A stretch of DNA of 64,000 nucleotides from an uncultured Spirochaetota bacterium (GTDB taxonomy: Bacteria; Spirochaetota; UBA4802; UBA5550): NCBI GenBank assembly GCA_942493035.1, contig OW818666.1, positions 4,294,874-4,358,873 of the forward strand, given 5' to 3'. The translations under genes and the position numbers were made by a program. A model generated the notes under the pieces. That model saw nothing but the letters and a program-made list of their open reading frames with translations, did no database searches and was not told the origin of the DNA. Shown piece by piece: positions 32,472 to 64,000 of this stretch (position 1 is the first letter of the stretch; every line of letters starts with the position of its first letter).

Positions 32472-32502
32472 AATTTCCCCACCCTTGACAGGAGGGGAAA
32501 TT
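32472..32502 (+). terminator. terminator hairpin after the PadR gene
   Basis: TTTCCCCACCCTTGACAGGAGGGGAAA. Confidence 0.6.
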
Positions 32503-32628
32503 ATTAAGTTATAAAAACCATTATAATAAGCTGCTGATTTTTTATATCTTGTCAGTCTCTGCTATAGCATCTTTTTATAATCATCGTTCTGGCCTCTATC
32601 TTTAGCTCTTAACTCCATCCATTCACGT

Positions 32629-33060
32629 TCATTTTTCGGCACATAAAGAGTATCTTCGTTGTCCCGTATCCTTCATCTCTCTTATAAAAGATGCTATAGT
32701 AGTAAAATCGGGCATGCTGTCTGCTGATAAAGCTCTGAATATTATATTCTCATGGCAGGCTTTCATTATCATTCGTGATGAAATAATTCCGCGGGAATAT
32801 GCCAGCAGAATTATTTTTAATAATATTGCCGGATCGTAAGCTGGGGCGCCTGTAAAATCATTTTTGTATTTCTTTGATAATCCTGAAAGATCAATCCTGT
32901 TATCCACCATCCAGTTTATGGTATGCTCGATGGTTCCAGGAAGAATCTGTGTACTGAAATTCACAGGTATCATTACTCCCTGCTCGTATGAATAGTATTT
33001 ATATCGGGCCATTGTTCCCTCCAATGACCGACATGTAGCATAACGGTTGTTATTTTGCAA
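32629..33060 (-). pseudogene. IS1182-family transposase, N-terminal fragment (3'-truncated)
   Basis: Residues 20-140 identical to the N-terminal part of the 490-aa transposase at 40643; diverges after REMKD; terminal IR GAGCCTGTAGAAAAAG at 33061-33076. Confidence 0.8.
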
Positions 33061-33102
33061 TCATTTCATACTTTTTCTACAGGCTCGTTGTGCGCAGTAT
33101 TT

Positions 33103-33888
33103 TTATTCTATCTCAAAAGATTTTTCTGAAATCAACATAGTTGAAATCAATAATCTTCCTAATTTTGTCGGCTTATAATTATTTGTATTGCTAAAATCAT
33201 TTAATACTTTTTCTAAAGACCTAAATTTATCATTGATAAGTTCTATTTCTTTTGAGCTAGATGATTCTAAACCGTAGCGTAAAGATGTTGGTATTTTAAA
33301 TTCTTTAATAATTAATCCAGATTTACTTAGCTTTGAAACATTTAATCTGTCTTTATTTAATAGAATTTCATGTTTCTCTAAATCTTTTGATTGAAATTTA
33401 TGTATTTGAAATAACTCAGGATAATATGTATTAAACTGTTCAGCTTGGGATGCTGTCATTTTATCATGATTACAATAATGATAAAGTATTAGAATTTGTT
33501 CATAATTTAACTCATCAACAATTTGAATAATTTCATCGGCAATATGAATATCAACTTTCTCATCTAAACCATTATTTACTATATTTCCAATCCATTCACA
33601 TTTAGCTTCGAAGTTTGAATTTGTTGATGCCTTTAAACCAGTTTCAATTAATCGGATTTTATTTTGATCTTCAATAATAATTTTAGATAATTCGTTAACC
33701 TTGCTATCAATTGCTTTGAGAAATTTAACAGCTCTATCAAGTCTTTGGTTTGGTATAACGGCACAGATTATCTCACTAAGGACAGGTCCCGCGTAAGGTA
33801 TGATCCCAATAATAGCTCTATTCAAAGCAGCAAGTTTATCGGATAGATTATTATCTAATATTTTTGAATTATCCATCAGAATCCTCAA
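33103..33888 (-). CDS. hypothetical cassette protein (261 aa)
   Basis: ORF bounded by the attC at 33933-34029 and an attC R' box disrupted by the IS1182 end. Confidence 0.5.
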   Translation of the reverse strand: MRILMDNSKILDNNLSDKLAALNRAIIGIIPYAGPVLSEIICAVIPNQRLDRAVKFLKAIDSKVNELSKIIIEDQNKIRLIETGLKASTNSNFEAKCEWIGNIVNNGLDEKVDIHIADEIIQIVDELNYEQILILYHYCNHDKMTASQAEQFNTYYPELFQIHKFQSKDLEKHEILLNKDRLNVSKLSKSGLIIKEFKIPTSLRYGLESSSSKEIELINDKFRSLEKVLNDFSNTNNYKPTKLGRLLISTMLISEKSFEIE

Positions 33889-33932
33889 GAGTATTAATTT
33901 AATGAATCACAGAAATTTTTAAAAATATTGCG

Positions 33933-34029
33933 CACAACGTCTTGCTTACCCGACGTTGCGCGGTCTTTTGCGCAATGTGGCGAAGCCCAAGTGAGGTACT
34001 CCGAACGCCGCGGGTAAGCTTTGTTATCG
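33933..34029 (-). repeat. integron attC-like site (type GCTTACCCG)
   Basis: ACAAC...CTTGCTTACCCGACG...GCCACAT...CGCGGGTAAGC...GTTAT; imperfect inverted repeat with a conserved centre. Confidence 0.7.
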
Positions 34030-34039
34030 GCTGTTGCAT

Positions 34040-34444
34040 TTATTTCACGGTCCAGTTTTCAATTTTTAAATTATGAACTTTTTTGAATTCTTTTGTATTA
34101 TTTGTTACAAGAATTGCATTCTTTGCTAATACTGTCGCAGCAATTATATAATCATTAGGGCCAATAATAGTTCCTTTCAATTCCATTGATGCTCTGATTT
34201 TCGAATAAGCAATTGAGCAATCATCATCAAATGAAATAATTTCGAAGGGTTCAAGAAACCTATTTATATTAACTAAATTTTTAGTTTTATGCTGACTTTT
34301 CTCAGCACCATATAGAAGCTCGGCTTTAACAATGGATGGAATTTTTATATTATTTGGGTTTGTATTATGAATATTATCTACAATCGATTGATATAATCCT
34401 TTAAGAAAATATACGCAAATATTTGTATCTAAAAAATAAATCAT
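34040..34444 (-). CDS. vapC: PIN-domain toxin VapC
   Basis: PIN motifs (FLDTNICVY; TNNTKEF); 4-bp overlap with the antitoxin. Confidence 0.8.
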   Translation of the reverse strand: MIYFLDTNICVYFLKGLYQSIVDNIHNTNPNNIKIPSIVKAELLYGAEKSQHKTKNLVNINRFLEPFEIISFDDDCSIAYSKIRASMELKGTIIGPNDYIIAATVLAKNAILVTNNTKEFKKVHNLKIENWTVK

Positions 34445-34668
34445 AAACTTTCTCTTTTAGAATCATGCTTAAAAGATAATTGATCAATTTTAAAAGATTC
34501 GTCTGCGATAGAACCAAATAAGTCAAAGAATCCTTGTGGATAATCTTCTTTTATTACTTTTTTAATGTTTTTACCAACCCATTTAGAAATCGAAATTTTT
34601 TCTTTATTCGCAGCTTTCTCTATTTTGGTTAATGTATCTTTGTCAATGTATAATGATATTTGTGGCAT
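34441..34668 (-). CDS. vapB: VapB-like antitoxin
   Basis: 75-aa ORF translationally coupled upstream of the PIN gene. Confidence 0.65.
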   Translation of the reverse strand: MPQISLYIDKDTLTKIEKAANKEKISISKWVGKNIKKVIKEDYPQGFFDLFGSIADESFKIDQLSFKHDSKRESL

Positions 34669-34745
34669 AGGAAACCTCCTATGTAAAAGATAATAAATTG
34701 TGTGAAAATGTCAAGTATATTAACAAGTATAGTTTAAATGCAATT

Positions 34746-35843
34746 CCTGAATTCAAGTTTGAAATGCAAAAGGAAATTAAAATAGTAGCCTCATGAGAAA
34801 TCTCCATAAAGGATTGAGTCGACCAAAACCAAATCCGAGAGAGATACCCATGAGGCATTTTAAACAAGTACAGTTTGAAGAAAGATTTGTCATGCAAAAA
34901 ATGATTTATTCAGATAAGCCTGTGAAAGAAACTGCTGAATTATTAAATCGTGATAAATCAACAATTTATCGCGAAATTGATAGGAATAAAACAAAAGGCT
35001 ATCATGCACAAGAAGCTCAAGCGGAATATTTAAAGAGGAAAAATTTAAAAAAAAGAAAGCTTGATGTCAATGGCTTACTGCGTTTGATAGTTATAACCTT
35101 TTTAAGGAACGGCGATTCACCCGAATTAATTTCTCAATACCTAAAGACAATGTTTCTGGAAGATGCATCAATGCACTTATCACACGAATCTATATATCAG
35201 TGGTTGTATGCTCAAAAAAATGAAAAGGGTGAATATCGTTTTACTCAATTTTTATTTATAAAACGGAAGAAACGCCAAAATCGCTCAAATACCTATAAAA
35301 ACAGGGCAAAAGATCCTTCGAAAAAGAATATAAGGGAACGCCCTGAAGAAGCAAATGATAAAAGCGAAATAGGCCATCTTGAGGGGGATCTGATTGTAAG
35401 CTCTGGAAATGATGCATATCTTCTTACTCTTGTGGAAAGAAAAGCAGCATTTACATGGGGTATTAAATTGCCTTCAAAAGATGCGGAAACTGTTACACGA
35501 GGAATTACAGAGGCTTTGGGTTCATTACCTGATGGATTTGTTAAATCAATTACATTTGATAATGGTTCAGAATTTTGCATGCATAAGACAATTGAAAATG
35601 CTCTTAACTGTAATGTATATTTTGCTGATCCTTATTCCTCATGGCAACGAGGTCTTAATGAACATATAAATGGGCGTATCAGATATTATCTTCCAAAGAA
35701 AAAAAGTTTCGCACACTTGACAGATGAATTTATTGATGATAGTATTTTTTCTATAAACGCAAGGCCGAGAAAATCCCGTGGTTGGAAATCTCCTGCTGAT
35801 ATTTTAAACTCCCATCTTGTCGCATTTCAAACTTGAATTCAGG
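34746..35843 (+). mobile_element. IS30-family insertion sequence, copy 1 (1098 bp)
   Basis: Perfect 22-bp terminal IRs CCTGAATTCAAGTTTGAAATGC; second copy at 43766-44863. Confidence 0.85.
34793..35836 (+). CDS. IS30-family transposase
   Basis: 347 aa, HTH N-terminus and DDE core (GHLEGDLIV; FDNGSEF). Confidence 0.85.
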   Translation: MRNLHKGLSRPKPNPREIPMRHFKQVQFEERFVMQKMIYSDKPVKETAELLNRDKSTIYREIDRNKTKGYHAQEAQAEYLKRKNLKKRKLDVNGLLRLIVITFLRNGDSPELISQYLKTMFLEDASMHLSHESIYQWLYAQKNEKGEYRFTQFLFIKRKKRQNRSNTYKNRAKDPSKKNIRERPEEANDKSEIGHLEGDLIVSSGNDAYLLTLVERKAAFTWGIKLPSKDAETVTRGITEALGSLPDGFVKSITFDNGSEFCMHKTIENALNCNVYFADPYSSWQRGLNEHINGRIRYYLPKKKSFAHLTDEFIDDSIFSINARPRKSRGWKSPADILNSHLVAFQT

Positions 35844-36498
35844 TTCTACTCATACTTTGAATACATTCCCATGGTTTTAATAAATCTTTAAAATAACTAC
35901 TGGCATATTGAATGCCTCTATCTGAATGAAATATAAAACCTTTACCTGGATTTCTTCTCATGCAGGCCATATTAAAGGCATCCCCAACAAGTTCAGCCCG
36001 CATATGATTAGCCATTGACCATCCGATAATCATTCTGGAATACAAATCCATTACGATACAAAGATATAACCATCCTTCCGAAGTTCCGATATATGTTATA
36101 TCCGAAACCCAGACTCGATCTTTTTCCTCTACAATAAAATTCCGGTCCACTATATTATCAGCCACAGGAAGAGTATGGGATGAATTAGTTGTGGCCTTAA
36201 ACTTTTTAACTGTTTTTGCCTTAATTTCGTTCACATGCATCAGCCTTTCTACTCTGTTAAGGCTACAGGTGATACCTTCCTCTATTAAATCCTGATGAAT
36301 TCTGGGACTGCCATATCTCTTATCGCTTGCAATATGTGATGAAATTATTCTCTCAAGAATAATTTCATCATCAAATGATCTTTTACTTCTTGGGCATTTA
36401 AGCCATGAATAATATCCGCTTTTACTCACTTCTAATGTCTGGCATATTCTTGATACTGAAAATTCACCACTATGCGTTTTGATGAAGTCATATTTCAT
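35839..36498 (-). pseudogene. IS3-family transposase OrfB, C-terminally truncated by IS30
   Basis: Integrase-core motifs (WVSDITYI; FHSDRGIQY); the ORF ends at the IS30 junction. Confidence 0.8.
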
Positions 36499-36785
36499 TC
36501 TTGTGGTTTCGAGAATATGCCCAGAGCCTTTTTTAGAATGTCACGCTCCTGCTTCAGGATTGCCATCTCTTTCTTTAGTCGCTTTATCTCATCAATATCT
36601 TCGGGATTTATAGTGACTGTCCCGGTTTTTCTTTCTTCATATTCAAGTTCTCTATTCCGGCGTAGTAAATTATCTCTGTTAATCCCGAGATCCTTCGCTA
36701 TTTCTAGTGAGGTCTTACCGCTACTTCTTAATAATTCTACTGCTTCTTTTTTAAACTCCTGGGTAAAATTGCTTCTTCTTGACAT
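36495..36785 (-). CDS. IS3-family transposase OrfA (HTH)
   Basis: 96 aa with HTH and leucine zipper, overlapping orfB as in IS3 frameshift units; IS3 terminal IR ends near 36851. Confidence 0.8.
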   Translation of the reverse strand: MSRRSNFTQEFKKEAVELLRSSGKTSLEIAKDLGINRDNLLRRNRELEYEERKTGTVTINPEDIDEIKRLKKEMAILKQERDILKKALGIFSKPQE

Positions 36786-36851
36786 TATAAGCCTCCAATA
36801 TTATTATATTTTCGGCTTAACTTGGTGTCCGCAATATCGGGGGAAGTTCAC

Positions 36852-36905
36852 AGTACAAAATTTTTAGTAAACTTGGCAAACGTCGTTTAGCCAAGACGTT
36901 ATCCG
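36852..36905 (+). repeat. attC 3' half (R' side) interrupted by the IS3 end
   Basis: AAAATTTTTAGTAAACTTGGCAAACGTCGTTTAGCCAAGACGTTAT matches the 3' half of the attC at 63413-63568. Confidence 0.7.
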
Positions 36906-36976
36906 AAATTTCGCCCCCCTTCCTGTTTTAAAATTTATCGCTTGACATTTAATTATTATGTAATTAAATTATAATT

Positions 36977-37264
36977 ATGAAACACATTACTTTTACATGG
37001 GATACAAAAAAGAATTCCGTTAACACACAGAAACACGGAGTATCTTTTGACGAAGCTAAATCAGTATTTTATGATGATAATGCGCGATTGATGCATGATC
37101 CGGATCACTCTGAAGATGAAGAAAGATTTCTTATACTTGGATTAAGTGAACGATTAAACATTCTTATTGTTTGCCATTGTTACCGTGAAGAAAATGAAAA
37201 TATAAGAATTATTTCTGCACGAAAAGCAACTAAGAATGAAAAAAAGCAATATCAGGAGTTTTGA
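36977..37264 (+). CDS. brnT: BrnT-family (DUF497) toxin
   Basis: DUF497 pattern (FTWDTKKNSVNTQKHGVSFDEA). Confidence 0.7.
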   Translation: MKHITFTWDTKKNSVNTQKHGVSFDEAKSVFYDDNARLMHDPDHSEDEERFLILGLSERLNILIVCHCYREENENIRIISARKATKNEKKQYQEF

Positions 37265-37476
37265 AAATGAGAAAAGAATATAATTTTTCAGAATCAATAA
37301 AAAATCCATACTCCGCGAAACTTAAAAAGCAGATTACCATAAGAATCGACGAAGATACGATTGATTACTTTAAAACACTAGCTGTCGAAATAGGAATTCC
37401 TTATCAAAAGTTAATGAATCTATATCTTGCTGAATGCGCAAAGAGTCATAAAAAGTTGAAACTTAATTGGAAGTAA
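37261..37476 (+). CDS. brnA: BrnA-family antitoxin
   Basis: 71-aa ORF overlapping the brnT stop. Confidence 0.65.
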   Translation: MKMRKEYNFSESIKNPYSAKLKKQITIRIDEDTIDYFKTLAVEIGIPYQKLMNLYLAECAKSHKKLKLNWK

Positions 37477-37549
37477 AACGGGGGGGCAAAACATCGGATA
37501 ACAAAGGCTAAACGCAGCGCCGGAGTACCGGCTTGGGCTGCGCCACATT

Positions 37550-39383
37550 GTGTGTCACGCAAGGAGTATAGAAGATGAAGGAGGGCCCTTCGGAGCCGGT
37601 ATACAGGTACAGGCTTCAAACCGCCTTAAGCTGCATTGGTAAAGAGCTATTGTGGTGAGCGTTAAGGAAAAGGCGTGATAAACACGTCAGGTGCGTTACA
37701 CGGAGACAAACGCAAGTGAATCATTGATGAGGTGTCGAAAGAGCCTACAGTTGAAGTCAAAACCGGGGTACAATGTGGATTTCGGGATAAATCTGAGAGA
37801 AACCTGTCTACTGCTCAGGTGGCTTCCGGCATAAAGATGGTGTGACTGTGTAACAGGCTTTTATATTCAACGTGAGAACCTGTCGTTTTGATGTTAAGGG
37901 AGAACTTCAAGCGGAGGCCCCGCGAGAAAGAGAGTACCGAAGCAAAGCACAGGGGCGGAGTGGTTCGTAGTAGTGAAGAAGTCTCTGTAATGGAGATGGA
38001 GCGAAGGAATCACGTTGTTCAGCTTTAAAGATTGATCAACCGGAAAACGGGAGGAGTTGATTGGATAAAGCAAAACCGTATTATATTTCCAAACATAATG
38101 TCTGGGAAAGCTACAAACAGGTAAAAGCAAACAGGGGTGCTCCCGGCGTTGATGGCGTAAATCTGGCAGATTTTGAGGCAGAATTGAAAAATAATCTGTA
38201 TAAAATCTGGAACCGGATGTCATCTGGAAGTTATGTACCTTCTCCTGTGCGTCGGGTTGAGATACCGAAAAGCGATGGGAAAACCCGGACACTCGGGATT
38301 CCCACAGTGTCTGACCGGATAGCGCAGATGGTAGTCAAACGTGAGCTCGAACCGGTATTGGAAAAAGTATTTCATCACAGCTCTTACGGATATCGCCCGA
38401 TGCGGTCTGCAAAAGATGCTGTTGCAAGTGCCCGTAAAAACTGCTGGAAATACGACTGGGTGTTAGACATCGACATTAAAGGATTTTTCGATAATATCGA
38501 TCATGACCTCATGATGAAAGCAGTACGTCGGCATACAGAAAGCGGATGGGTTAGACTGTACATAGAGCGATGGCTGAAAGCACCCGTTATGACAACTGAA
38601 GAAGGCCTTCAGCAACGAACACAGGGAACACCTCAGGGCGGAGTGATAAGCCCGCTTCTTGCAAATCTGTTTCTTCATTATGCATTTGATGTCTGGATGG
38701 GGAAAAATTATCCGTCAGTATCTTTTGAAAGATATGCGGATGACTGTATCTGTCACTGCCGCACTGAAGATGAGGCAGTCAGGCTGAAGGAAGCGCTGGA
38801 AAAGAGAATGGCTGAATGCAGGCTCGAACTCCATCCGGAAAAGACAAAGATAGTATATTGTAGAGATGACGCAAGAAAGGGCAGCTACCCGGTAGAATGC
38901 TTTGATTTTCTGGGTTTTACATTTAAAGCACGAAGGTCAAAGACGAAGCATGGGAAATATTTTATCAACTTCAGTCCAGCGGCGAGTGATAAGGCATTGA
39001 AGAACATGAGAATAACCATGAAAGCGTGGAATGTTCATCAGCGAAGCAGAGAATCACTTGAGGAATTATCCTGTAGGTTCAATGCGAAAATCAGAGGATG
39101 GATCAACTATTATGGGAGTTTTTACAGATCAGCGATGTACCCGACTTTACGTAATTTTGATTTAATTCTTTCGAGATGGGCAATGAAGAAATATAAACGT
39201 TTAAGAAATCACAAACGGAGAGCCAGGCACTGGATAGAACGTATTGCGATGAAAGAGCCGTGTTTATTTTCGCATTGGAGAATTCTTTACGGTAACGGTT
39301 GAACAACAAGAGCCGGATGAATCGAGAGATTCACGTCCGGTTCCGTGAGAGCGTAGAGGGGAGGTTCCTCTGCGCCACTCGAC
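37550..39383 (+). mobile_element. group II intron (class-C-like), copy 1, 1834 bp
   Basis: Starts GTGTG; domain V GAGCCGGATGAATCGAGAGATTCACGTCCGGTTC after the ORF; ends ...CGAC; identical to copies at 51095 and 53925. Confidence 0.85.
38061..39302 (+). CDS. group II intron reverse transcriptase/maturase (no endonuclease domain)
   Basis: 413 aa, RT domains 0-7 with YADD, plus maturase X domain. Confidence 0.9.
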   Translation: MDKAKPYYISKHNVWESYKQVKANRGAPGVDGVNLADFEAELKNNLYKIWNRMSSGSYVPSPVRRVEIPKSDGKTRTLGIPTVSDRIAQMVVKRELEPVLEKVFHHSSYGYRPMRSAKDAVASARKNCWKYDWVLDIDIKGFFDNIDHDLMMKAVRRHTESGWVRLYIERWLKAPVMTTEEGLQQRTQGTPQGGVISPLLANLFLHYAFDVWMGKNYPSVSFERYADDCICHCRTEDEAVRLKEALEKRMAECRLELHPEKTKIVYCRDDARKGSYPVECFDFLGFTFKARRSKTKHGKYFINFSPAASDKALKNMRITMKAWNVHQRSRESLEELSCRFNAKIRGWINYYGSFYRSAMYPTLRNFDLILSRWAMKKYKRLRNHKRRARHWIERIAMKEPCLFSHWRILYGNG

Positions 39384-39497
39384 AGCAACCTAATGTGGCT
39401 GAATACTTTTAGAACCTGGCAAAAAGATTTTAAAAGAAAATGAATTGAAAAACTCGCTAACGTCAGTTAGCGTGAACGTTATGCGAAAGAGCGGGGG

Positions 39498-40160
39498 CTA
39501 AAACCGCACGTCCTGTGCGGTTTTAGAAAGAAAAAATTTACACTTTTTATTCAATACACATTTATAACATAAAGGATTTCTATTACAAATCAATCTAGTA
39601 ACATCTAATAGACCATAATTATAATCTCTGAATTTTCTCAGTGGTGTTAAACTATCTGATAAATCAGCAAACCATTTTTTTCTTATTGTTTCACCATCCG
39701 TATTAAACCCAAAAAATCTACCATACAAGCGAACTATGTTGCTATCAATTATATATTCACGCTTGTTTAAATGTAGTGATAAAAAAGCTGAAGCAACGTA
39801 CTCTCCTACACATGGTAATTTTAAAAGTTCTATTTTTGAATCGGGTATTTCTTTTAAAGTATTTAATTGTTCGCATAACTTTAAAAATCGTTCATACCTC
39901 CAATTTAGGCCAAGAGTAAGGAAAATATTTTTAGGTGAATCAATAAATTGTTGTGAGGCATTATATTTTTTTATAAAATCAATGTATACTGGTAAAACCT
40001 GATCAGCATTAGTTCGTTGTAATAGAATCTCTGCAGTAAGTGCATGAAACTTATTTTTTGTATTTCTCCATTCAAACGAAGTATAAAATTTTTTTCCTGC
40101 AAGTATTATTTTATTTTGAAAATACAGAATATCTTTCTTGTCCAATTTAAAATCTGTCAT
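39498..40160 (-). CDS. HhH-GPD superfamily DNA glycosylase-like protein with C-terminal 4-Cys cluster
   Basis: HhH motif LLKLPCVGEYVASAFL and cluster CX6CX2CX5C (Nth/MutY-like [4Fe-4S]). Confidence 0.6.
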   Translation of the reverse strand: MTDFKLDKKDILYFQNKIILAGKKFYTSFEWRNTKNKFHALTAEILLQRTNADQVLPVYIDFIKKYNASQQFIDSPKNIFLTLGLNWRYERFLKLCEQLNTLKEIPDSKIELLKLPCVGEYVASAFLSLHLNKREYIIDSNIVRLYGRFFGFNTDGETIRKKWFADLSDSLTPLRKFRDYNYGLLDVTRLICNRNPLCYKCVLNKKCKFFLSKTAQDVRF

Positions 40161-53806: not shown

Positions 53807-53924
53807 GCACAATGCCTTCGCCCATCCGTGGGCTACGGCAGACCGAACTTTGTGTAAATGTTGCCACTACATATAACAAAGGCTAACAGCGGCGCCGGAG
53901 TACCGGCTTGGGCTTCGCCACATT

Positions 53925-55758: not shown

Positions 55759-55861
55759 GCGCAAAAGGCCGCGCAACGTCGGGTAAGCAAGACGTTATGT
55801 GCCATTTTTTTTCTTGACTTTACACATAGAATTGTGTAAATTATTCAGAGAGGTTATTTAT

Positions 55862-56059: not shown

Positions 56060-56493
56060 CAAGATTCATTATAGATACATCCGTATGGTCAGAAGCACTT
56101 CGACGAAAGAAGAAAACTGTAAATTCGTCAGATACTATTGTTAGAAAGATTATAGAAAATGATGATGAAATTGTTGTTGTAGGCATTATCCTTCAAGAAA
56201 TTCTAACTAGCATTGCAGATGAAAAACTGTTTAGAGAAATTAAAGATATCCTGGATGATTTTTTATATTTAGATATTACAAAAAATGATTTCATTTACGC
56301 TTCCGAGTTAAATAATAAATGCAGATCTAAAGGAATTAATGCTGGATCAATTGATTTTTTAATTGCAAGCGTTGCCATCAGAAACGAACTAGAATTGGTC
56401 ACTTTCGACAAAGACTTTTTTAATATTAGCAAGTATACAGATTTAAAAATTTTAGACGTAGGCCGTTTCCTTGATAATAAAACTGAAAATTAA
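56056..56493 (+). CDS. vapC: PIN-domain toxin VapC
   Basis: IIDTSVW...TFDKDF PIN motifs. Confidence 0.75.
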   Translation: MTRFIIDTSVWSEALRRKKKTVNSSDTIVRKIIENDDEIVVVGIILQEILTSIADEKLFREIKDILDDFLYLDITKNDFIYASELNNKCRSKGINAGSIDFLIASVAIRNELELVTFDKDFFNISKYTDLKILDVGRFLDNKTEN

Positions 56494-56510
56494 ACCGAAA
56501 AAAAACGGCA

Positions 56511-56567
56511 CATAACAAAGCTTAAACGCAGCGCTCGGAGTACCTCGCTTGGTCTGCGCCACATTTA
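56511..56567 (+). repeat. attC 5' half split by IS21 copy B
   Basis: CATAACAAAGCTTAAACGCAGCGCTCGGAGTACCTCGCTTGGTCTGCGCCACATTTA. Confidence 0.7.
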
Positions 56568-56645
56568 CGTATTCCGGTGAAACCTGCCACCTATTCCGGT
56601 TTTAAGTTTACCACTTTTAATCCATTTCCATTTTCGAACTAACCA

Positions 56646-57404
56646 TTACTCAAGTGGCAGGTTTCGTCCAGAATTTTTTGATTTTTCCTTTCTCATAGAA
56701 TCTCCTTTAATGTCTATTTTATGTGAAGTATGAAGAAGTCTATCACAGATTGCATCCGCAATAGTCGCATCCCCAATAAGATCAAACCACTTATCTGTAG
56801 GAATTTGAGAACTAATAATTATCGATCTGCTGCCGTGGCGATCTTCAAGCATCTCAAGTAACATTAACCGCGAGTCTGAATCAAAAGGCTTTAATCCGAA
56901 GTCATCAAGAATTATCAAATCCAGTTTTTTAATTTTATTCATCTCTTTAAAATATGATCCATCAACTTTACAGTACTTCAGATGTGAAAACAATTTCAAG
57001 CAGTTGTAGTATCCAACCTGATAACGAAGAATACATGCTTTATGACCAAGTGCGCAGGCCATAAAACTTTTACCTGCACCTGTAGAACCGGTGATGATAA
57101 TGCTCTCTCCTTTTTTGATCCAGTCACATGTCGAGAATCTGAGTATCAGATTTCTGTCAATTTTTCGTGATGGTTTGAAATCTATCTCTTCAACACTTGC
57201 CTTATATCTAAAGGCTGCATTTTTAAGCAGAGTTTTAAATTTCCTGTTATACCTTTCATCCCATTCAGCATCGATGAGATGAGCGACCATTTCATCAACC
57301 GTAAACTTGTTTTTCATATCTGTAGAGAATGTTTCACGGAATGAACTGAGCATTCCGTGAAGACGCATTTCCTGCATCTTTTCAATCGTTCCCTGATTGT
57401 TCAT
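56646..57404 (-). CDS. istB: IstB ATPase
   Basis: Identical to 50051-50809. Confidence 0.85.
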   Translation of the reverse strand: MNNQGTIEKMQEMRLHGMLSSFRETFSTDMKNKFTVDEMVAHLIDAEWDERYNRKFKTLLKNAAFRYKASVEEIDFKPSRKIDRNLILRFSTCDWIKKGESIIITGSTGAGKSFMACALGHKACILRYQVGYYNCLKLFSHLKYCKVDGSYFKEMNKIKKLDLIILDDFGLKPFDSDSRLMLLEMLEDRHGSRSIIISSQIPTDKWFDLIGDATIADAICDRLLHTSHKIDIKGDSMRKEKSKNSGRNLPLE

Positions 57405-58978
57405 TGTAATTCCTCCATGTAATATTGATTGCCTCTTATGTTATCATGTTCAGGTAGGGTGAATTCCGAGTCTTTATCTTCTTCACCTGCTTGATCCATG
57501 TTGTTGCTTAGAATATTTTTAATCATCTTGTATGTGCAGTTTTCATAGTAGAGAGCCAATTCACAAGCACGGTTAAGTCGGATTTCTCCATATGTTTTAG
57601 TTAGGGCAAATATTCCGAGGCATGTTTTATAACTCTGCTCAGGATGCTGCCGGGAGGAGAGAACTATTTCAATTACAGTTACCACAGCATCGCCTTTTAG
57701 TTTTGCAATATTGGTCAGTTTTTCCGGGTTCCAATTATCCTCCCATTTGTGTGATTCCGGCATATGATTCCTTTGTGTTGTGTATCCGTTTTTTCTCCTG
57801 TTTCTAAAATGTGAGGCGACTCTTACGTTGCCACAATAGACTTCTACGGCTCTTTCTGTGAAAAGTACTTCTACTTTCCGCCCTTTATAGCGATATGGCA
57901 CACTGTAGTAATGACTGTCATCACTCAGATAGATATGATAGTTAAATTGAACTGTGAGGATTTTAAACTTCTTGATTTCATAAAGATCCTCTGGAAGAGG
58001 CTGCAGTTCACTCTTTTCAATGCTGTCAAAAAGTTCCCGTCGACTTACACCAGGTCGCTGCATTGTCCGGGAATTGAATGATTCAAGCAACTCCATGATC
58101 GCAGCGTTGAGTTCTTCAAGTGAAAAGAATACACGGTCACGAAGCTTGGCGTAAATCCATGAATATGAAATTCGTACAGCTCCTTCAACCAGAGCTTTGT
58201 CTTTCGGTTTTGCAGGTCGTGCAGGAAGTATTGTTGTGCCGTAATGTCTGGCAAAATCAAGATACTCCGGATTGATATCCGGTTCGTATCTGTCTGTTTT
58301 TGTTACTGCCGATTTTAAGCAGTCTGGCACAATAGCCAGTGGAACACCATCGATGTATCTTAATGCATTTTCATTTAGTCTTATCCATTCCTCCTTCTTC
58401 TGGCTCATTGAAGCTTCTACATAGACAAGCTGGCTTGCTCCCAGGATTGCTACAAAAACTTCAACCTCTCTTATCTCTCCTGTCGTCCGGTCTGTTATGG
58501 CAAGTTTCTTACCGGCAAAATCCACAAAGAGTTTGTCGCCCGCTTTATGTTCAATGTGCATTGTAATCTCTGACATATTCTGCCAGATCTGAAAATGATA
58601 ACAAAACTGCGAGTAACTGTATCCGTCTGGATTTTCCTCTATGTATTCTTCCCACAAAGTTTGGCGAGTCACTCCGAGACGTTTTAGCTCCTGCGTGAAA
58701 TGAAGGAATTGTTTTTGAAGTATTTCATGTCGTTTATTGTCTGCTGTTTTATTTCCCTGTAGAATATTTAGAAGCGTTTCATCCGGCATATTTTCTATAT
58801 CAATAAAAGTTAATCCGAATGTTTTAACCTTGTTAATATAATCGCTGACGACCGGACGAGACATTCCAAGGGCTTGGGATATCTGTCTCTGACTAAGTTT
58901 TGACTGCTCGTGAAGACGCATGATTTCTCTGATTTTTTTCATCGATATTCTCCTTTGTGACATGCCCGGTAACTCCAT
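57401..58978 (-). CDS. istA: IstA transposase
   Basis: Identical to 48477-50054. Confidence 0.85.
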   Translation of the reverse strand: MELPGMSQRRISMKKIREIMRLHEQSKLSQRQISQALGMSRPVVSDYINKVKTFGLTFIDIENMPDETLLNILQGNKTADNKRHEILQKQFLHFTQELKRLGVTRQTLWEEYIEENPDGYSYSQFCYHFQIWQNMSEITMHIEHKAGDKLFVDFAGKKLAITDRTTGEIREVEVFVAILGASQLVYVEASMSQKKEEWIRLNENALRYIDGVPLAIVPDCLKSAVTKTDRYEPDINPEYLDFARHYGTTILPARPAKPKDKALVEGAVRISYSWIYAKLRDRVFFSLEELNAAIMELLESFNSRTMQRPGVSRRELFDSIEKSELQPLPEDLYEIKKFKILTVQFNYHIYLSDDSHYYSVPYRYKGRKVEVLFTERAVEVYCGNVRVASHFRNRRKNGYTTQRNHMPESHKWEDNWNPEKLTNIAKLKGDAVVTVIEIVLSSRQHPEQSYKTCLGIFALTKTYGEIRLNRACELALYYENCTYKMIKNILSNNMDQAGEEDKDSEFTLPEHDNIRGNQYYMEELQ

Positions 58979-59069
58979 CTGATTTGATTTTTTATCAGAT
59001 TAATCAGGCTCTGTTTTAAAAGGAAATGGTTTGTTTTTTATTCCGGTAAAATCCTAAAAGTGGCAGGTT

Positions 59070-59435
59070 TCAACCGGAATGGGTGGCAACTTTGCACCGG
59101 AACAGGTGGCAGGCATTTTCCGGAATGAGTGGCAGGTTTGGGCCGGAATACGCAAAAATATAGATTTGGAATAAAACTTCAGCTATTGAGGCTAACATTA
59201 TTCTTATGTGTTTACTTTCCCATTTATCATAAGAATTTTCATGAACTTTCGAACTTGTTAATTCTTGAATGGTAATGAGTGTATCAAAATACAATGGATC
59301 AACATTGGAGAATATTTTTTTTAAAGCTTTTATTCTTGCATTATAGTCAGAACCATCAGCATTATGTTTATGTGCGAGTTCATATATTATTTTCCTGATA
59401 CAAACAGAGCTACCTGTTAAAAAATTATTTTTCAA
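59070..59435 (-). pseudogene. cassette ORF with its 3' end fused to or interrupted by the IS21 copy B terminus
   Basis: The last 25 codons or so are read from the IS21 end sequence. Confidence 0.5.
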
Positions 59436-59504
59436 ACAGCCTTCGGCTTCAAAAAATAATTCTCTTAATGATTTCGGAATGTTTTCATCTAAGACAAAGC
59501 TTGA

Positions 59505-59816
59505 TTATGGGATTGATAAAAAAATATATTTATCTAAGTCTGAAATAACCTCGTGATGTTTAGCTAATTGTGTCGCTGTAAATTTTCCATTTATATTAAA
59601 TGGTATAATCTTATCTGAAAAATGGATTGAAATTTTATTACATGAATCACATTGAATCTGATATAAATGACATTCTTTTTCATTAGTCCAATCAAATGTA
59701 AATTCATCAAGAAAAGAAAATTGAACATGCCTTCTTTTACAAAAAGGACAATTGTAGGTATGAGAATCAATAAAATACTTATTATCCAAGTTACTTTGAT
59801 CATATGTTTTTTTCAT
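59505..59816 (-). CDS. Cys-rich (CxxC...CxxC) small cassette protein
   Basis: 103 aa with CPFC...CDSC; in the same cassette as 59070-59435, with no attC between them. Confidence 0.5.
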   Translation of the reverse strand: MKKTYDQSNLDNKYFIDSHTYNCPFCKRRHVQFSFLDEFTFDWTNEKECHLYQIQCDSCNKISIHFSDKIIPFNINGKFTATQLAKHHEVISDLDKYIFLSIP

Positions 59817-59882: not shown

Positions 59883-59981
59883 GTACAACGTCTTGCTTAC
59901 CCGACGTCGCGCGGCCTTTTGCGCGATGTGGCGAAGCCCAAGTGAGGTACTCCGAACGCCGCGGGTAAGCTTTGTTATATG
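59883..59981 (-). repeat. attC-like site (type GCTTACCCG)
   Basis: GTACAACGTCTTGCTTACCCGACGTCGCGCGGCCTTTTGCGCGATGTGGCGAAGCCCAAGTGAGGTACTCCGAACGCCGCGGGTAAGCTTTGTTATAT. Confidence 0.75.
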
Positions 59982-60066
59982 ATGCGACGTGCGTTGATAA
60001 AAAAAGGAATTAAAAAAAAGGCATAGTTTACCTACTATGCCTTCAGAAATAGTTCAATGGGTAAGG

Positions 60067-60639
60067 TTATTTTAATTTTATAGCAATTTTCTTTTCAATT
60101 TGAGCATCAGTATATTTAGGGAATGATTTTTTAAAATTTGATATATCCACTATGGAATTGTCTGCAATATCGATTCTAGTTAAATACACCCTCGTCCCCT
60201 TATCAACTTTCTGATTAGTAAGATATGCAGTGAGCTGACCTATGTAATTTATTTTATTTTCATCTATGGTAAACTTATAGCCGTACATTGCTTTGTTGAT
60301 ATCACTTAAATTTGAAAAGTAAACTGGACCAGCTCCACTATGTAATTGTACTGAATCAAGAATGTATTCACCTTTTGGTAAATATAAGTATTGGGTATTA
60401 CCTGATAAACTGTTCCGATAATAATATGATATATTAGTTTCAGTATTTTTAATCCAAATAGTCATAGGTACTTTTGAAAAACTATTATCCCAAGAGTTTG
60501 AAAATTGGAACACTAAAATTCCAATTCCATTATTATCCTGAAGTGTGTCACTGCTTTTTAAAACATGCGGTGCAGAGCTACAGCCTATTAAAAACAAAAG
60601 CATAAGTATTGAAATAAAATAAATTTGAATTTTTTTCAC
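60067..60639 (-). CDS. lipoprotein (GTG start)
   Basis: Signal peptide with lipobox LIGCSS. Confidence 0.6.
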   Translation of the reverse strand: MKKIQIYFISILMLLFLIGCSSAPHVLKSSDTLQDNNGIGILVFQFSNSWDNSFSKVPMTIWIKNTETNISYYYRNSLSGNTQYLYLPKGEYILDSVQLHSGAGPVYFSNLSDINKAMYGYKFTIDENKINYIGQLTAYLTNQKVDKGTRVYLTRIDIADNSIVDISNFKKSFPKYTDAQIEKKIAIKLK

Positions 60640-60750
60640 GAATAGACCTCTTTTTTAAATTTTTCATAAGTATTCATTTTTTCGTATATGTCAATTACTA
60701 TTTTATAGCGTACTGTTTTTTATGGATATAGAAAGTTAAGCACGTCGTTT

Positions 60751-60906
60751 CATATAACGTCTTGGCTAACTGACGATAGCGAGTTTTACAACTAATTTTT
60801 TTTAAAATCAGTTTGCCAGGTACTAAAAGTATTCAGCCACATTAGGTTGCTAATGTGGCGAAGCCCAAGCCGGTACTCCGGCGCCGCTGTTAGCCTTTGT
60901 TATATG
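60751..60906 (-). repeat. attC-like site (type GGCTAAC)
   Basis: CATATAACGTCTTGGCTAACTGACGATAGCGAG...GCCACATTAGGTTGCTAATGTGGCGAAGCCCAAGCCGGTACTCCGGCGCCGCTGTTAGCCTTTGTTATAT. Confidence 0.75.
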
Positions 60907-60969: not shown

Positions 60970-61683
60970 CTATTCTATTAACTCAAAACTTTTAAATAAA
61001 TATTCTTCTGAATCTTTTTTGACGAACATCTTATAGTTAGTCCAACAACCTTTTGTAATATTAAATTGTGCAGTGATATGTAATCTATCTAAACTGTAAC
61101 CATCTATATATGCAATATTATCAGATACTTTTTTTATTGTATAATCAATGAACAATGGGTTAGCATTTACATTATCATCAAATTCAAATTTACAGGTCCA
61201 TGATTCACCAATTGAAATTTCTTTATCAGGGAAATAAAAAGGAATTATCACTGGTTTAATGTTTTTCTCTTTATTATTGAGTTTTAAAATGTTAAAGCCA
61301 AATATGCATCCCATTGATAGATAGTCATTACTATTATCAATAAATTCTCCGGTAGGGCTTATGATATTTTCAATTTCTCTATCTGTTGTAATAAAATAAC
61401 CAGGATAAGTTAGTGGATTACAACAGCTTGATTTATTAAATATTATCAAGGAAGATGTTACTTTGTAAGTATTTTTATCATTTTCCTTGATAGACATCTT
61501 AAAAATGCTATTGGAAGAATACGCACCAAAAAGTTTATTTAATATTACTGATTCTGGAGCAGGCTGAATCTGTATTTTATATTTCAAGTTTTCAATTGGT
61601 TTAAATATCAATAAGTGTTTATCTGCAGAATAGCTTTTTGAAAAGAATAATAGAATAAATGCGACTGTTATAATTTTATTCAT
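60970..61683 (-). CDS. secreted/lipoprotein-like cassette protein (duplicate of 53093-53806)
   Basis: Identical amino-acid sequence; start placed at MNKII after the RBS. Confidence 0.6.
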   Translation of the reverse strand: MNKIITVAFILLFFSKSYSADKHLLIFKPIENLKYKIQIQPAPESVILNKLFGAYSSNSIFKMSIKENDKNTYKVTSSLIIFNKSSCCNPLTYPGYFITTDREIENIISPTGEFIDNSNDYLSMGCIFGFNILKLNNKEKNIKPVIIPFYFPDKEISIGESWTCKFEFDDNVNANPLFIDYTIKKVSDNIAYIDGYSLDRLHITAQFNITKGCWTNYKMFVKKDSEEYLFKSFELIE

Positions 61684-61745
61684 AGGATTAATTTCCTCTT
61701 TTCTCTCCGGGCATGGACGCCCGGTCTTAAATTTTGTTGCCATTA

Positions 61746-61903
61746 CATATAACGTCTTGCTTATACGACGCTTGCCAAGTTTACTGGAAATTTTATATTC
61801 TATAAGTTTATACAAATCAAGTAGTTTTTTGCCACGACAAGTGGCAAGTGTGGCGAAGCCCAAGCGAGGTACTCCGAGCGCAGCGTATAAGCTTTGTTAT
61901 ATG
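61746..61903 (-). repeat. attC-like site (type GCTTATACG)
   Basis: CATATAACGTCTTGCTTATACGACGCTTGCC...GTGGCGAAGCCCAAGCGAGGTACTCCGAGCGCAGCGTATAAGCTTTGTTATAT. Confidence 0.75.
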
Positions 61904-61940: not shown

Positions 61941-62315
61941 CTATAAGTATTTTTCTTCTTTACTTAAAAGCGAATTTAATTTTTTATCAAGTGACCAAAT
62001 CGGAGCATTTATTTTTCTTGCAGTAACAATTATAAAACTATCAATTATTCCAACACCAATAGAAGTGAGTTTATTTATCGAAGAATATTTACCTGCTTCA
62101 ATCCATCCATTTTCAATAATTGCTTTTGGAAGATTTTCCCAGTATAGTGAAATAATTTCTATTTCACGTTTGCTTTTTGCTCCTTGAAGTAATTCTCCAA
62201 AAATGCACTCGATAGCTAATACTTTTCGATTTTCCAACAAATCTTTAACTTTAGAATAGTATTCTGGTTTATTTTTCAAGAATTCAATCCAGATTGAGGT
62301 ATCAAGAATTATCAT
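61941..62315 (-). CDS. vapC: PIN-domain toxin VapC
   Basis: MIILDTSIWIEF...; overlaps the antitoxin gene by 4 bp. Confidence 0.75.
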   Translation of the reverse strand: MIILDTSIWIEFLKNKPEYYSKVKDLLENRKVLAIECIFGELLQGAKSKREIEIISLYWENLPKAIIENGWIEAGKYSSINKLTSIGVGIIDSFIIVTARKINAPIWSLDKKLNSLLSKEEKYL

Positions 62316-62527
62316 CTTTTCCTATTAACTTCACGTACTTTAGCAGCAGAGAAATCTTTTGAAAACTGCAATGGTTTCTTTGATATTTCATCGTTTAAGG
62401 CATGAACTTTTTTTAAAGAAAGCCATTCTTCTAGTGCAGTCACGAGACTTTCGGTAAGGTTTTTCCCACCTGCGAAATGTTTTACATCATTGACTAGTTC
62501 ATCTGGTATAAGTGCTGTTACTTTCAT
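62312..62527 (-). CDS. VapB-like antitoxin
   Basis: 71-aa ORF upstream of and coupled to the PIN gene. Confidence 0.6.
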   Translation of the reverse strand: MKVTALIPDELVNDVKHFAGGKNLTESLVTALEEWLSLKKVHALNDEISKKPLQFSKDFSAAKVREVNRKR

Positions 62528-62604
62528 GATGTAAATATACGATATTTTATCGTATATGTCAAGAGGAAATTTAAGTTTTATGGCAGATTGTTTTTTTTGC
62601 TATG

Positions 62605-62763
62605 CCATATAACGTCTTGGCTAACTGACGTTAGCGAGTTTTACAACCTATTTTTTTTAAAATCTTTTTGCCACGTACTAAAAGTGTTCAGCCACATTAG
62701 GTTGCTAATGTGGCCTCTGGCCCAAGCCGGTACTCCGGCGCCGCTGTTAGCCTTTGTTATATG
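62605..62763 (-). repeat. attC-like site (type GGCTAAC)
   Basis: R''/R' pair CATATAAC...GTTATATG flanking GGCTAAC...GTTAGCC. Confidence 0.75.
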
Positions 62764-62832
62764 ATGCGACGTGCCTTCACGCAAAGTTTTGATGGGTTAA
62801 TACACGGATGTATTAACCCAATACAAATAATT

Positions 62833-63363
62833 TTATCTTACTAAATAACCTTTATCAAACTGCTCTTTACATAAATCATCAATAAATAGTTGAGCTTGAG
62901 ACTTAAATTTATTTAATTGAATCGTATTTATATAAAAATTATAAGTATTGATTTCATTGAATGATATATCAACATCAGTAGAATTAATTTTTACTTTAAA
63001 ATTAAAATAAGTCTTAATTGGTGCAAATGAATATCTCACGTAAATAAAACTAAAAGCTGATATTTCATATAATTCTTCATCTATAATAATTTTATCAATC
63101 ATGTTTTCGGATGGATTTTTATACTTTTTATTGAAATATGATTCCATTGAATCATCAAATGATGATATTTCATAAGAAAAATTATGCTTCTTCAGTAAAA
63201 CTGGAATTTGATTTTTTAATTCTAAAAATACAGCTTCATTATTCTTAGCAATATTAATTTTATATGAAACACTGTAATTTGCTTCATCTTTTGTTAAAGA
63301 AATACATGATGTAAAAAAGAATGCAAAAATAATCACTAAATATTTTCTCATATATAAATTCAT
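62833..63363 (-). CDS. lipoprotein-like cassette protein
   Basis: Start placed at MNLYMRKYLVIIFAFFFTSC; the upstream part of the listed ORF is hairpin translation. Confidence 0.55.
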   Translation of the reverse strand: MNLYMRKYLVIIFAFFFTSCISLTKDEANYSVSYKINIAKNNEAVFLELKNQIPVLLKKHNFSYEISSFDDSMESYFNKKYKNPSENMIDKIIIDEELYEISAFSFIYVRYSFAPIKTYFNFKVKINSTDVDISFNEINTYNFYINTIQLNKFKSQAQLFIDDLCKEQFDKGYLVR

Positions 63364-63412
63364 CCTCTCCGCGCACGGACGCGCGGTCTTTAAAAGTTTG
63401 GGCACGTCGTTT

Positions 63413-63568
63413 CATATAACGTCTTGGCTAAACGACGTTTGCCAAGTTTACTAAAAATTTTATACTGAATGAGTTTATACAAATCAAGAAGTTTTTGCCA
63501 CGATTAAGTGGCAAATGTGGCGAAGCCCAAGCCGGTACTCCGGCGCCGCGTTTAGCCTTTGTTATATG
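63413..63568 (-). repeat. attC-like site
   Basis: CATATAACGTCTTGGCTAAACGACGTTTGCCAAG...GTGGCGAAGCCCAAGCCGGTACTCCGGCGCCGCGTTTAGCCTTTGTTATAT. Confidence 0.75.
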
Positions 63569-63632
63569 AAGTGACGTGCCTTACATATAAAGTTTGTCGA
63601 GTACACGGACGTACGAGACTGCTGATAATCGG

Positions 63633-63953
63633 TTATTCATACTTTCCGTAAGGTAAATTATGAAGTTCATCCCAAAAACTATTTGGGTAAATAATTCCAG
63701 TTTTTAAAAATTCTTTATAATCATTGATTCCATTTTTTAATAATGTACTATTATTATCATTAACGGATGTATGGAAACCAAGAATGTTTGCAATAACTTC
63801 AAGATCGTCAGGCGTATATGGGTGATTAAAAGTACCATCATTTTTGATTTTTTCTTTGATATCTTGTTGATAACCAATTGTCATTAAACCAAATTTATTT
63901 ATTAAACCCCAGAGAGTTGATGAATAATCATATTTAGTAAAATTGAAATACAA
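63633..63953 (-). CDS. hypothetical cassette protein
   Basis: 106-aa ORF at the window edge. Confidence 0.45.
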   Translation of the reverse strand: MYFNFTKYDYSSTLWGLINKFGLMTIGYQQDIKEKIKNDGTFNHPYTPDDLEVIANILGFHTSVNDNNSTLLKNGINDYKEFLKTGIIYPNSFWDELHNLPYGKYE

Positions 63954-64000
63954 TTCAGTTATTTTTTTAATTTCATTCTTATCAAATCCTATTTCTTCGA

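Follow-up and report, generated by a model that had tools for sequence, protein, structure and literature searches.

A 'reverse' chromosomal integron was reportedly described in Treponema by Coleman in 2004. Wu et al. (2013) regarded Treponema as the only spirochaete clade known to have integrons (PMC3607928). The 'reverse' integrons of Treponema denticola and T. succinifaciens are chromosomal, carry many toxin-antitoxin (TA) cassettes and have attC sites with R and L boxes, and the T. succinifaciens array is interrupted by transposases (PMC3607928). All of these features, and the phylum, are shared by the locus analyzed here, which lies in a 64,000-nucleotide (nt) stretch of the genome of an uncultured Spirochaetota bacterium (contig OW818666.1; hereafter the window). 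We propose that positions 33.9-64.0 kb of the window represent the integrase-distal part of a chromosomal integron-type cassette array. We put the probability of this reading at roughly 0.85, a single figure that covers the identity of the array, its orientation, its later damage and the integrase inferred for it jointly. The last point bears on the I2 insertion of the integron integrase IntI, which has been described as specialized for the recombination of attC (PMC4792948; Messier and Roy 2001, cited in PMC4889954). Cury et al. noted a few recombinases of intermediate type in the vicinity of attC sites and dismissed them (PMC4889954).

The array is marked by a single repeat family. Between 33,995 and 63,542 the motif GGTACTCCG is found 13 times, with copies on either strand, where 0.11 occurrences are expected by chance. 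A profile of the intact copies gave 17 matches with nhmmer, and a covariance model built from 21 family members gave 15. All of these matches fall within 33.9-63.6 kb, and neither search matched anything in positions 1-33 kb; a scan of the window with Rfam, which contains no attC family, matched intron families only. The fragments collapse to 14 distinct sites, of which seven are intact (98-156 nt), three are split by an intron, one by an insertion sequence (IS) of the IS110 family and one by an IS21 element, and two are lone halves. The original prediction had listed the motifs ATATAAC/GTTATAT, GGCTAAC..GTTAGCC, GCTTACCCG..CGGGTAAGC and CGGAGTACC..CTTGGGC..CGCCACAT, and all of them are present. 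The family is real and far above chance, but the ~20 sites of 100-160 bp and the at least 15 cassettes claimed for it were overcounts, since the window holds ~13-14 cassettes.

The setting is an ordinary chromosomal one and supports the chromosomal integron-type array that had been predicted from the attC-like inverse cores and dyads and the TA-rich cargo. Positions 1-32 kb carry ordinary chromosomal genes (HtpG, Sua5, SppA, methyl-accepting chemotaxis proteins, ABC-F, enoyl-CoA hydratase and PadR), and the G+C content falls from ~0.40 to 0.30-0.35 in the cassette stretches. At the other end, the five rightmost sites and their cassettes (59.9-63.6 kb) are intact, regularly spaced and in the same orientation, and the genes at 59-64 kb all lie on the minus strand. 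That the array runs on past 64,000, as the original prediction had it, is supported. No tyrosine recombinase was detected in the 64-kb window by tblastn with IntI1, again as predicted. With 14 sites and no recombinase, the window corresponds to the definition of a cluster of attC sites lacking an integrase (CALIN; at least two attC sites and no integrase nearby), a descriptive label that depends on the DNA beyond 64,000. The ABC-F gene (27043-28566) is 85% identical to positions 6476-8000 of a related locus (L037) in the Spirochaetota metagenome-assembled genome (MAG) JBBRFT01, where the distal array end is ~1 kb away. The array of a related species thus has a syntenic position in the chromosome.

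The sites have the architecture of attC, i.e., R'' (nnnnAAC), a 3-nt spacer, L'' (7-9 nt), a conserved or variable middle, L', a 5-nt spacer and R' (G↓TTnnnn). On the sense strand they read cATATAAC - AAA - L'' (GGCTAAC, GCTTACCCG, GCTTATACG and others) - GCgGCGcCGGAGTACCGGCTTGGGCTTCGCCACATT - middle - aACGTC - L' - AAGAC - GTTATatg, and the middle is either a short hairpin or carries ~58 extra nt (short and long types, respectively). The inverse cores of an attC site, R'' (RYYYAAC) at its 5' end and R' (GTTRRRY) at its 3' end on the sense strand, are recognizable here as ..AAC and GTT.., typically ATATAAC/GTTATAT; they were found in all seven intact window sites and in 68 sites of the family. 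Both strands fold, with similar energies, into an R stem of 8-9 bp, a 3x5 internal loop, an L stem of 7-11 bp and a branched tip. Among 21 diverse short-type sites, 93.9% of the cells of this four-helix structure are paired, against 24-44% with slid partners; covariation scores 0.291, with the slid controls reaching no more than 0.052, and 11 pairs change on both sides. In the L helix alone, four of eight pairs change on both sides with 96.4% of the cells paired, a pattern that is lost in the slid controls. RNAalifold recovers the same L stem and inner hairpin.

Two features of the site are near-invariant. One is the spacer asymmetry, an unpaired 3-nt AAA facing a 5-nt AAGAC in essentially all sites, and the other is ACGTC ahead of L'. 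A single extra T on the ' side, beside the invariant ACGTC, was found in 24 of the 68 family sites, among them four of the seven intact window sites. A consistent helix was sought for the block GGAGTACC and rejected: none accommodates both variants, CCGGAGTACCGG and CTCGGAGTACCTCG, and the block is therefore kept as sequence and not as structure. We infer that the 3x5 spacer, ACGTC and CGCCACAT would act as elements of recognition or of strand choice. Some cassettes show an extra inverted repeat outside the R boxes, with ..AAAGTTTGGGCACGTCGTTTC directly before ATATAAC and GTTATAT directly followed by GAAGTGACGTGCC..AAAGTTTG; it is seen at 63380-63420 with 63560-63600, and also at 60720-60750, 59985-60000 and 62765-62790.

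The junctions between sites separate a recombination unit from a simple palindrome. In a self-contained palindrome the outer bases of R' pair with its own R'', whereas in cassettes joined at G↓TT their partner is the R'' of the site that follows. Over 27 pairs of neighbouring sites, drawn from the window and from related loci, the 4 nt behind GTT match the next R'' at 3.63 of 4 positions and their own R'' at 2.63 of 4; the next-site match was higher in 16 pairs and lower in none. Examples of R' and next R'' are GTTAGAC with GTCTAAC, GTTAAAC with GTTTAAC and GTTATCG with CGATAAC. The rule holds across transposons, for R' GTTGTACG of the site at 59883 complements R'' CGTACAAC at 51039, and R' GTTATCGGC at 44870 complements R'' GCCGATAAC at 34029. 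When the same attC type is compared across genomes, identity ends exactly at ...AAGACGTT and divergence begins immediately after. Because the distal R' bases complement the next site's R'' rather than their own, the units are circularly permuted cassettes recombining at G↓TT. This establishes that the repeats delimit mobile, circularly permuted units with the crossover at G↓TT on the sense strand, as in integron cassettes. An alternative in which the recombining 'top' strand is antisense to the genes, suggested by the extra bases and the orientation of the introns, was rejected on two grounds, the upstream position of the integrase in relatives and the R'/next-R'' rule.

Each cassette unit consists of one gene or one TA pair followed by attC on the sense strand. 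The cargo is TA-rich as predicted, although Pfam confirms six TA pairs and not seven: three VapBC, BrnTA, Phd/ParE and RelE with a helix-turn-helix (HTH) protein. The remaining cargo comprises two DUF6263 lipoproteins, two further lipoproteins, fragments of a type II restriction enzyme and unknowns. No methyltransferase was seen adjoining the restriction-endonuclease cassette (39498-40696), which is truncated by the IS1182-like element.

The attC family had been taken to be private to this genome, but it is not. Scanning a single genome of each species for the exact pattern turned up 62 loci with the family, most of them in Spirochaetota MAGs (Spirochaetia, Leptospirales and Brevinematales) with a few in bins that carry other labels, and the related arrays reach up to 8 sites per 8 kb. 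Four TA cassettes of the window recur in other MAGs with 83-93% identity, at other positions in the arrays.

Mobile elements have heavily modified the window array. Summed from the mapped coordinates, mobile DNA accounts for ~19 of 31.5 kb (~60%). Three group II introns, recognized by the Rfam D1-D4-2 and domain V/VI models, are present as identical 1,834-nt copies, each encoding a 413-amino acid (aa) protein with the Pfam domains RVT_1 and GIIM, i.e., reverse transcriptase (RT) and maturase domains only. All three are inserted on the sense (attC top) strand in the middle of an attC, directly 3' of ..CGCCACATT. The attC halves around introns 1 (37495-37549/39384-39486) and 3 (53869-53924/55759-55807) belong to different attC types, and recombination between identical intron copies, with deletions or rearrangements, is the likely origin of the mismatch. 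Two identical IS110 copies, whose transposase matches PF01548 (DEDD_Tnp_IS110) and PF02371 (Transposase_20), interrupt two different attCs, in each case with ..AATGTG on one side and CGAAGG.. on the other; they occupy one fixed nucleotide position in the same relative orientation, antisense to the cassettes and ~8 nt from the intron site. A search for relatives of the intron and of IS110 in related loci gave nothing by nucleotide BLAST and one distant reverse transcriptase by protein BLAST. The remaining elements are an IS3 remnant, an IS1182-like element and an IS5-like fragment. The insertions of three unrelated elements, IS21, IS110 and the intron, fall within ~10 nt of one another in the attC motif CGCCACATT (48290-48300, 45816-45820, 47305-47310 and 37541-37549), and this shared hot spot may reflect exposed or single-stranded DNA or a protein-bound landmark.

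Two IS pairs account for the mixed orientation of the sites. The flanks of the two IS21 copies are swapped, and one attC is divided between their left flanks, its boxes GCTTAAACG and CGTTTAAGC matching and the target duplication being AAATGTG; it follows that 50891-56564 has been inverted. An inverted pair of IS30-like elements brackets 35.8-43.8 kb, and since the sites inside point the opposite way, recombination between the IS30 copies probably flipped this block as well. Sites are thus found in both orientations because IS pairs have inverted segments; the minus-strand orientation that had been predicted for the right-hand units holds for the genes at 59-64 kb. With the IS21 inversion and the probable IS30 inversion undone, all sites lie on the minus strand, which places the integration platform to the right of 64,000, in agreement with the prediction. 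The introns, the IS110, IS21, IS30, IS3 and IS1182 elements, the fixed insertion spot and the IS-pair inversions were not mentioned in the original prediction. The features of the array are collected in Table 1.

Table 1. Features of the cassette array, from the right end of the window leftward (window coordinates)
Feature	Position	Strand	Details
Intact attC, long type	63414-63567	-	L'' GGCTAAACG; cassette of open reading frame (ORF) 63633-63953
Intact attC, long type	62607-62762	-	L'' GGCTAAC; lipoprotein cassette 62833-63405
Intact attC, long type	61747-61902	-	L'' GCTTATACG; VapBC cassette 61941-62527
Intact attC, long type	60752-60905	-	DUF6263 lipoprotein cassette, ORF 60970-61863; real start probably internal
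Intact attC, short type	59883-59980	-	L'' GCTTACCCG; lipoprotein cassette 60067-60639
Cassette of two unknown ORFs	59070-59816	-	103 and 121 aa; cut by IS21 copy 2
IS21 copy 2	56565-59154	-	IstA 525 aa, IstB 252 aa
IS21-split attC, 5' (top-strand) half	56503-56564	+	Partner 48196-48300
VapB/VapC cassette	55799-56493	+	In inverted segment
attC split by group II intron copy 3	53869-55807	+	Intron 53925-55758; halves of different types, chimeric
DUF6263 lipoprotein cassette	53033-53806	+	In inverted segment
attC split by group II intron copy 2	51039-53031	+	Intron 51095-52928; R'' CGTACAAC
Segment inverted between the two IS21 copies	50891-56564	.	Flanks swapped
IS21 copy 1	48301-50890	+	
IS21-split attC, 3' (top-strand) half	48196-48300	-	Box GCTTAAACG (plus-strand reading)
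RelE-like toxin and HTH antitoxin cassette	47423-48140	-	
attC split by IS110 copy B	45770-47361	-	IS 45820-47305, + strand, antisense to cassettes
Phd/ParE cassette	45055-45670	-	
Intact attC, long type	44870-45027	-	R' GTTATCGGC
IS30-like copy 2	43766-44869	-	
attC 5' half, then IS110 copy A	42222-43760	+	Half 42222-42274; IS 42275-43760, - strand
IS1182/IS5-like transposase	40643-42115	+	490 aa; truncates restriction-enzyme cassette
Reversed cassette, type II restriction endonuclease fragments	39498-40696	-	REase_II, EcoRII-C
attC split by group II intron copy 1	37495-39486	+	Intron 37550-39383; L''/L' not complementary, chimeric
BrnT/BrnA cassette	36977-37476	+	
Lone attC 3' half	36851-36906	+	Beside IS3 remnant (35839-36785)
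IS30-like copy 1	34740-35843	+	Brackets 35.8-43.8 kb block with copy 2
VapBC (PIN) cassette	34040-34668	-	
Last, integrase-distal intact attC, short type	33932-34029	-	
Distal array end	32629-33888	-	Unknown 261-aa ORF without its own attC, and truncated IS5-like transposase fragment (32629-33060)
PadR	31951-32463		Start of housekeeping genes leftward

Relatives of the window array suggest which enzyme could have built it. Six recombinases were found among the related loci by tblastn with the same IntI1 query. On TIGR02249, the NCBIfam model of the integron integrase, all six scored below the cut-off of 265 bits (165-215 bits for the recombinase adjoining the arrays), and the match is split, skipping profile positions ~180-240. 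A canonical IntI was found neither in the 62 loci of the attC family nor in 13 further loci. In two of the loci (L001 and L059) the recombinase has 350-355 aa with an extra N-terminal region and is followed by the junction GTTATGTG; it is flanked by housekeeping genes on one side and, on the other, by a cassette towards which it is transcribed. These two and a third (L063), all with the attC family of the window, share the order housekeeping genes, recombinase, attI-like GTTAT.. junction, cassette and attC. In L063 (positions 1-11077, a Leptospirales MAG), the recombinase and the array head adjoin rpmH-rnpA-yidD-yidC-jag-mnmE, the usual origin-proximal cluster.

A profile search showed that this recombinase family comprises at least 7,700 proteins at E <1e-30, and the genomic context of 12 distinct members was analyzed. 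Nine of them (the three above and six others) have a full layout consisting of the recombinase, two imperfect palindromes, 5-8 nt, AG↓TT, a cassette and an attC whose R'' complements the start of that cassette. Two lie on contigs that end within 0.8 kb, and both of these show the palindromes, one (L066) also a cassette-like start; the twelfth is considered below. The same layout of recombinase, palindromes and cassette was seen in a Methanotrichaceae MAG with an archaeal label (L069) and in Wallbacteria (L068), where binning errors are possible.

The clearest case is that of two metagenome samples, L070 and L071, which differ at the attI itself. They have an identical recombinase and flank, and their identity extends up to ..ATATAACCAAGTT (the attI end, also given as ..AACCAAGTT). 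Beyond it the first cassettes are different, although both encode restriction-modification or defence genes, and identity returns at GTT/ATACGCC, the downstream cassettes being shared. Each R'' is complementary to the first 8 nt of its own cassette, R'' CGCACAAC for the start GTTGTGCG and R'' CGCCTAAC for the start GTTAGGCG. One of the two regions (L070 11409-16200, L071 11409-14980) carries an EcoRI-type methyltransferase, GmrSD/HNH and AAA_13, and the other an AlwI-type restriction-modification system. Here attI is a point at which defence systems are exchanged.

The recombinase is related to IntI but lacks its hallmark. Over the full core it is 32% identical to IntI1, including KGxKDR, HxLRHSFATHLL, LLGH, IYTHV and the C-terminal SPLD. 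Its best match in the Protein Data Bank is VchIntIA (2a3v), in two pieces, followed by Pyrococcus XerA. Residues 183-238 of 2a3v, where the I2 helix is located, are matched by just 14 residues in the recombinase, and the IntI1 insertion was found in none of 11 aligned family members. A confident AlphaFold model (mean predicted local distance difference test score, pLDDT, 86.6) shows five strands and two helices in residues 1-70, matching the description of the HARP fold (PMC4666394). Pfam HARP (PF07443) matches the N-terminal region in 9 of 10 members, three of them above the gathering cut-off. A profile of the N-terminal domain gave 4,585 matches among 1.84 billion representatives, the top ones being multi-copy HARP-like proteins, a result with little bearing on integrases. 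The HARP-type recombinase is the putative integrase of this attC family, and hence of the window array; the N-terminal HARP-like domain would replace I2 in reading folded or branched att DNA. The canonical intI anticipated by the original prediction may have been a wrong expectation, as the array-head recombinase of the relatives lacks the IntI-specific domain. The literature that we searched contains no description of an integron integrase that lacks the IntI domain and carries a HARP-like domain.

Shorter IntI-like recombinases (265-287 aa) in two loci, L008 and L032, were rejected as array integrases, since IS91 Y2 transposases follow them. They belong to IS91-type elements within arrays of the window's attC family (L008 2793-4838; L032 1-1429), made up of a recombinase without the N-terminal domain and a Y2 transposase; the IS91-associated recombinase is ~44% identical to the array-head enzymes. 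Short recombinases in L002 and L007 also lack the N-terminal domain and are oriented divergently to the arrays.

The following model is consistent with these results. The crossover by a tyrosine recombinase falls between G and TT of R', so that a cassette begins with TTnnnn and ends with ...G. The original array would have lain wholly on the minus strand, with the integrase and attI to the right of 64,000. Judging from the relatives, the cognate integrase is probably non-classical, an IntI/XerA-like tyrosine recombinase of ~350 aa that would lack the I2 or additional domain and would recognize folded or branched att sites through its N-terminal HARP-like domain. It would be transcribed towards attI and the cassettes, the 'reverse integron' layout, and attI would consist of two imperfect palindromes, 5-8 nt and AG↓TT. 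The three compact group II introns, the two IS110 copies and the IS21, IS30, IS3 and IS1182 elements invaded the array later. The inverted IS21 copies recombined, flipping 50.9-56.6 kb, and the IS30 copies probably flipped ~35.8-43.8 kb.

Several observations weigh against this proposal. The window contains neither an integrase nor an attI. The attC-like hairpins foreseen by the original prediction do form, on both strands, but the extrahelical bases expected in them do not follow the canon: bases of this kind on the '' side of the L stem (the 3' half of the bottom strand), which in canonical sites determine the strand used, are present in 0 of 7 intact window sites and in 16 of 68 family sites. 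The chimeric attCs, the inversions and the ~60% mobile DNA mean that the array may be inactive. In the relatives, one member of the recombinase family (P0091) has no array downstream, and close short relatives are the IS91 accessory genes, so that family membership alone is no proof of integrase function. These last two facts would suit a classical integron, in which a canonical IntI with the additional domain lies beyond 64,000 or elsewhere and the HARP-type recombinases are unrelated Xer-like or mobile-element neighbours. The attC architecture and the G↓TT crossover are indeed canonical, canonical IntIs in reverse orientation have been reported for Spirochaetota (PMC9668308, PMC3607928), and recombinases without intI_Cterm near attC sites were judged by Cury et al. 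not to be IntI (PMC4889954). We nevertheless consider a classical integron unlikely, given that no canonical IntI was found in the 62 loci of the family or the 13 further ones, the cassette swap between L070 and L071 at that very attI junction, and the position of 9 of the 12 recombinases, which lie exactly between housekeeping genes and the first cassette, co-directional with it and followed by the conserved two-palindrome attI ending in AG↓TT.

The damage to the array raises the question of whether it is a decaying relic, i.e., a CALIN built once by an integrase and now immobile, reshaped only by IS elements, introns and homologous recombination. The share of mobile DNA, the interruption or halving of 7 of 14 sites, the two chimeric intron-flanking sites, the IS21 and IS30 inversions and the absence of an integrase within 30 kb all fit this possibility, which we regard as doubtful: the five rightmost sites and cassettes are intact, co-oriented and regularly spaced, and the array extends beyond the window edge in the direction of the expected platform. 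A relic would in any case be compatible with a cassette array of the kind proposed, since it bears on present activity and not on identity. It is highly improbable, finally, that the repeats are intergenic palindromes of the repetitive extragenic palindrome (REP), bacterial interspersed mosaic element (BIME) or miniature inverted-repeat transposable element (MITE) type, or terminators between genes, and not recombination sites. The repeats do lie between genes and are palindromic, their inner hairpins are GC-rich, and their central block is conserved in sequence across species, which is unusual for attC. But their outer 4 nt pair with the other end of the next repeat and not with their own, the identity between copies breaks off precisely at GTT, the hairpins are not followed by a T-run, shared cassettes lie at different array positions in relatives, and L070 and L071 differ by a whole unit bounded by these junctions.

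The window alone reveals a large, badly damaged chromosomal array in a phylum where integrons were long thought to be confined to Treponema. The relatives add arrays that pass every sequence test for cassettes (inverse cores, covarying stems, G↓TT crossover, a cassette swap at attI and R'' matching its own cassette start) and yet the recombinase at their head does not pass the test that defines IntI. Tentatively, and at somewhat less than even odds, we suggest that the window array belongs with them to a distinct and widespread integron class, found in Spirochaetota, other bacterial phyla and some archaeal MAGs, whose integrase lacks I2 and uses an N-terminal HARP-like, junction-specific DNA-binding domain to recognize folded attC and palindromic attI. 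If so, IntegronFinder-type searches label such elements as CALINs, part of the unexplained abundance of CALINs would be complete integrons of a second class, and tyrosine recombinases would have a second structural solution for recombining single-strand hairpins. Were the recombinase the integrase, the additional domain would not be universally required for cassette recombination, pipelines that demand it would undercount integrons and overcount CALINs, and a HARP-type junction-binding domain would offer a testable alternative for reading folded att sites.

Compared with known systems, the array combines familiar and unfamiliar traits. Like Vibrio-type arrays of Vibrio cholerae repeats (VCR) and CALINs (PMC4889954), it is long, has near-identical attCs within a genome and a cargo of TA and unknown genes, and uses R''=..TAAC, R'=GTTA.. 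and the G↓TT crossover. It differs from them in that the putative integrase gene of its relatives is co-directional with the cassettes and not divergent, the recombinase found with the arrays has no IntI domain, conservation of the inner attC extends across host families, and the asymmetry resides in the spacer (3 vs 5 nt) and not in L-box bulges. REP/BIME and MITE repeats have self-contained ends, and those analyzed here do not. Relative to IntI1 and VchIntIA, the recombinase of the relatives lacks the IntI-specific insertion of ~40 residues (I2 helix) and has an extra N-terminal HARP-like domain of ~70 residues. With group IIC-attC introns (PMC3001079) the introns share a compact form, an RT and maturase only, site-specific insertion in attC just after a hairpin and the presence of several copies. 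Known IIC-attC introns lie on the bottom strand, opposite to cassette transcription, between a gene and its attC (Léon and Roy; PMC3001079). By contrast, all three copies here are on the sense strand in mid-attC, the opposite of that rule. IS1111-attC elements of the IS110 family target attC sites. The IS110 copies in the window resemble them in their DEDD transposase and their fixed position and orientation within attC, and differ in host and in attC family. Among 'reverse' integrons, the attCs of Treponema mostly measure 63-68 nt and show a protruding G, whereas those of the window measure 98-156 nt, have a 3x5 spacer and a conserved inner module, and usually lack the canonical extrahelical base. 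The Treponema IntI is treated in the literature as classical, with the additional domain (PMC4889954, PMC9668308), and this published description sets it apart from the recombinases found here; likewise, the attC family extends over Spirochaetia, Leptospirales and Brevinematales MAGs and not Treponema only. What is new relative to the known 'reverse' layout is therefore an attC without canonical extrahelical bases but with a conserved inner module, an intron that targets attC on the sense strand, a site family that extends across several spirochaete orders, and an array-head recombinase in the relatives that fails the IntI test and carries a HARP-like domain.

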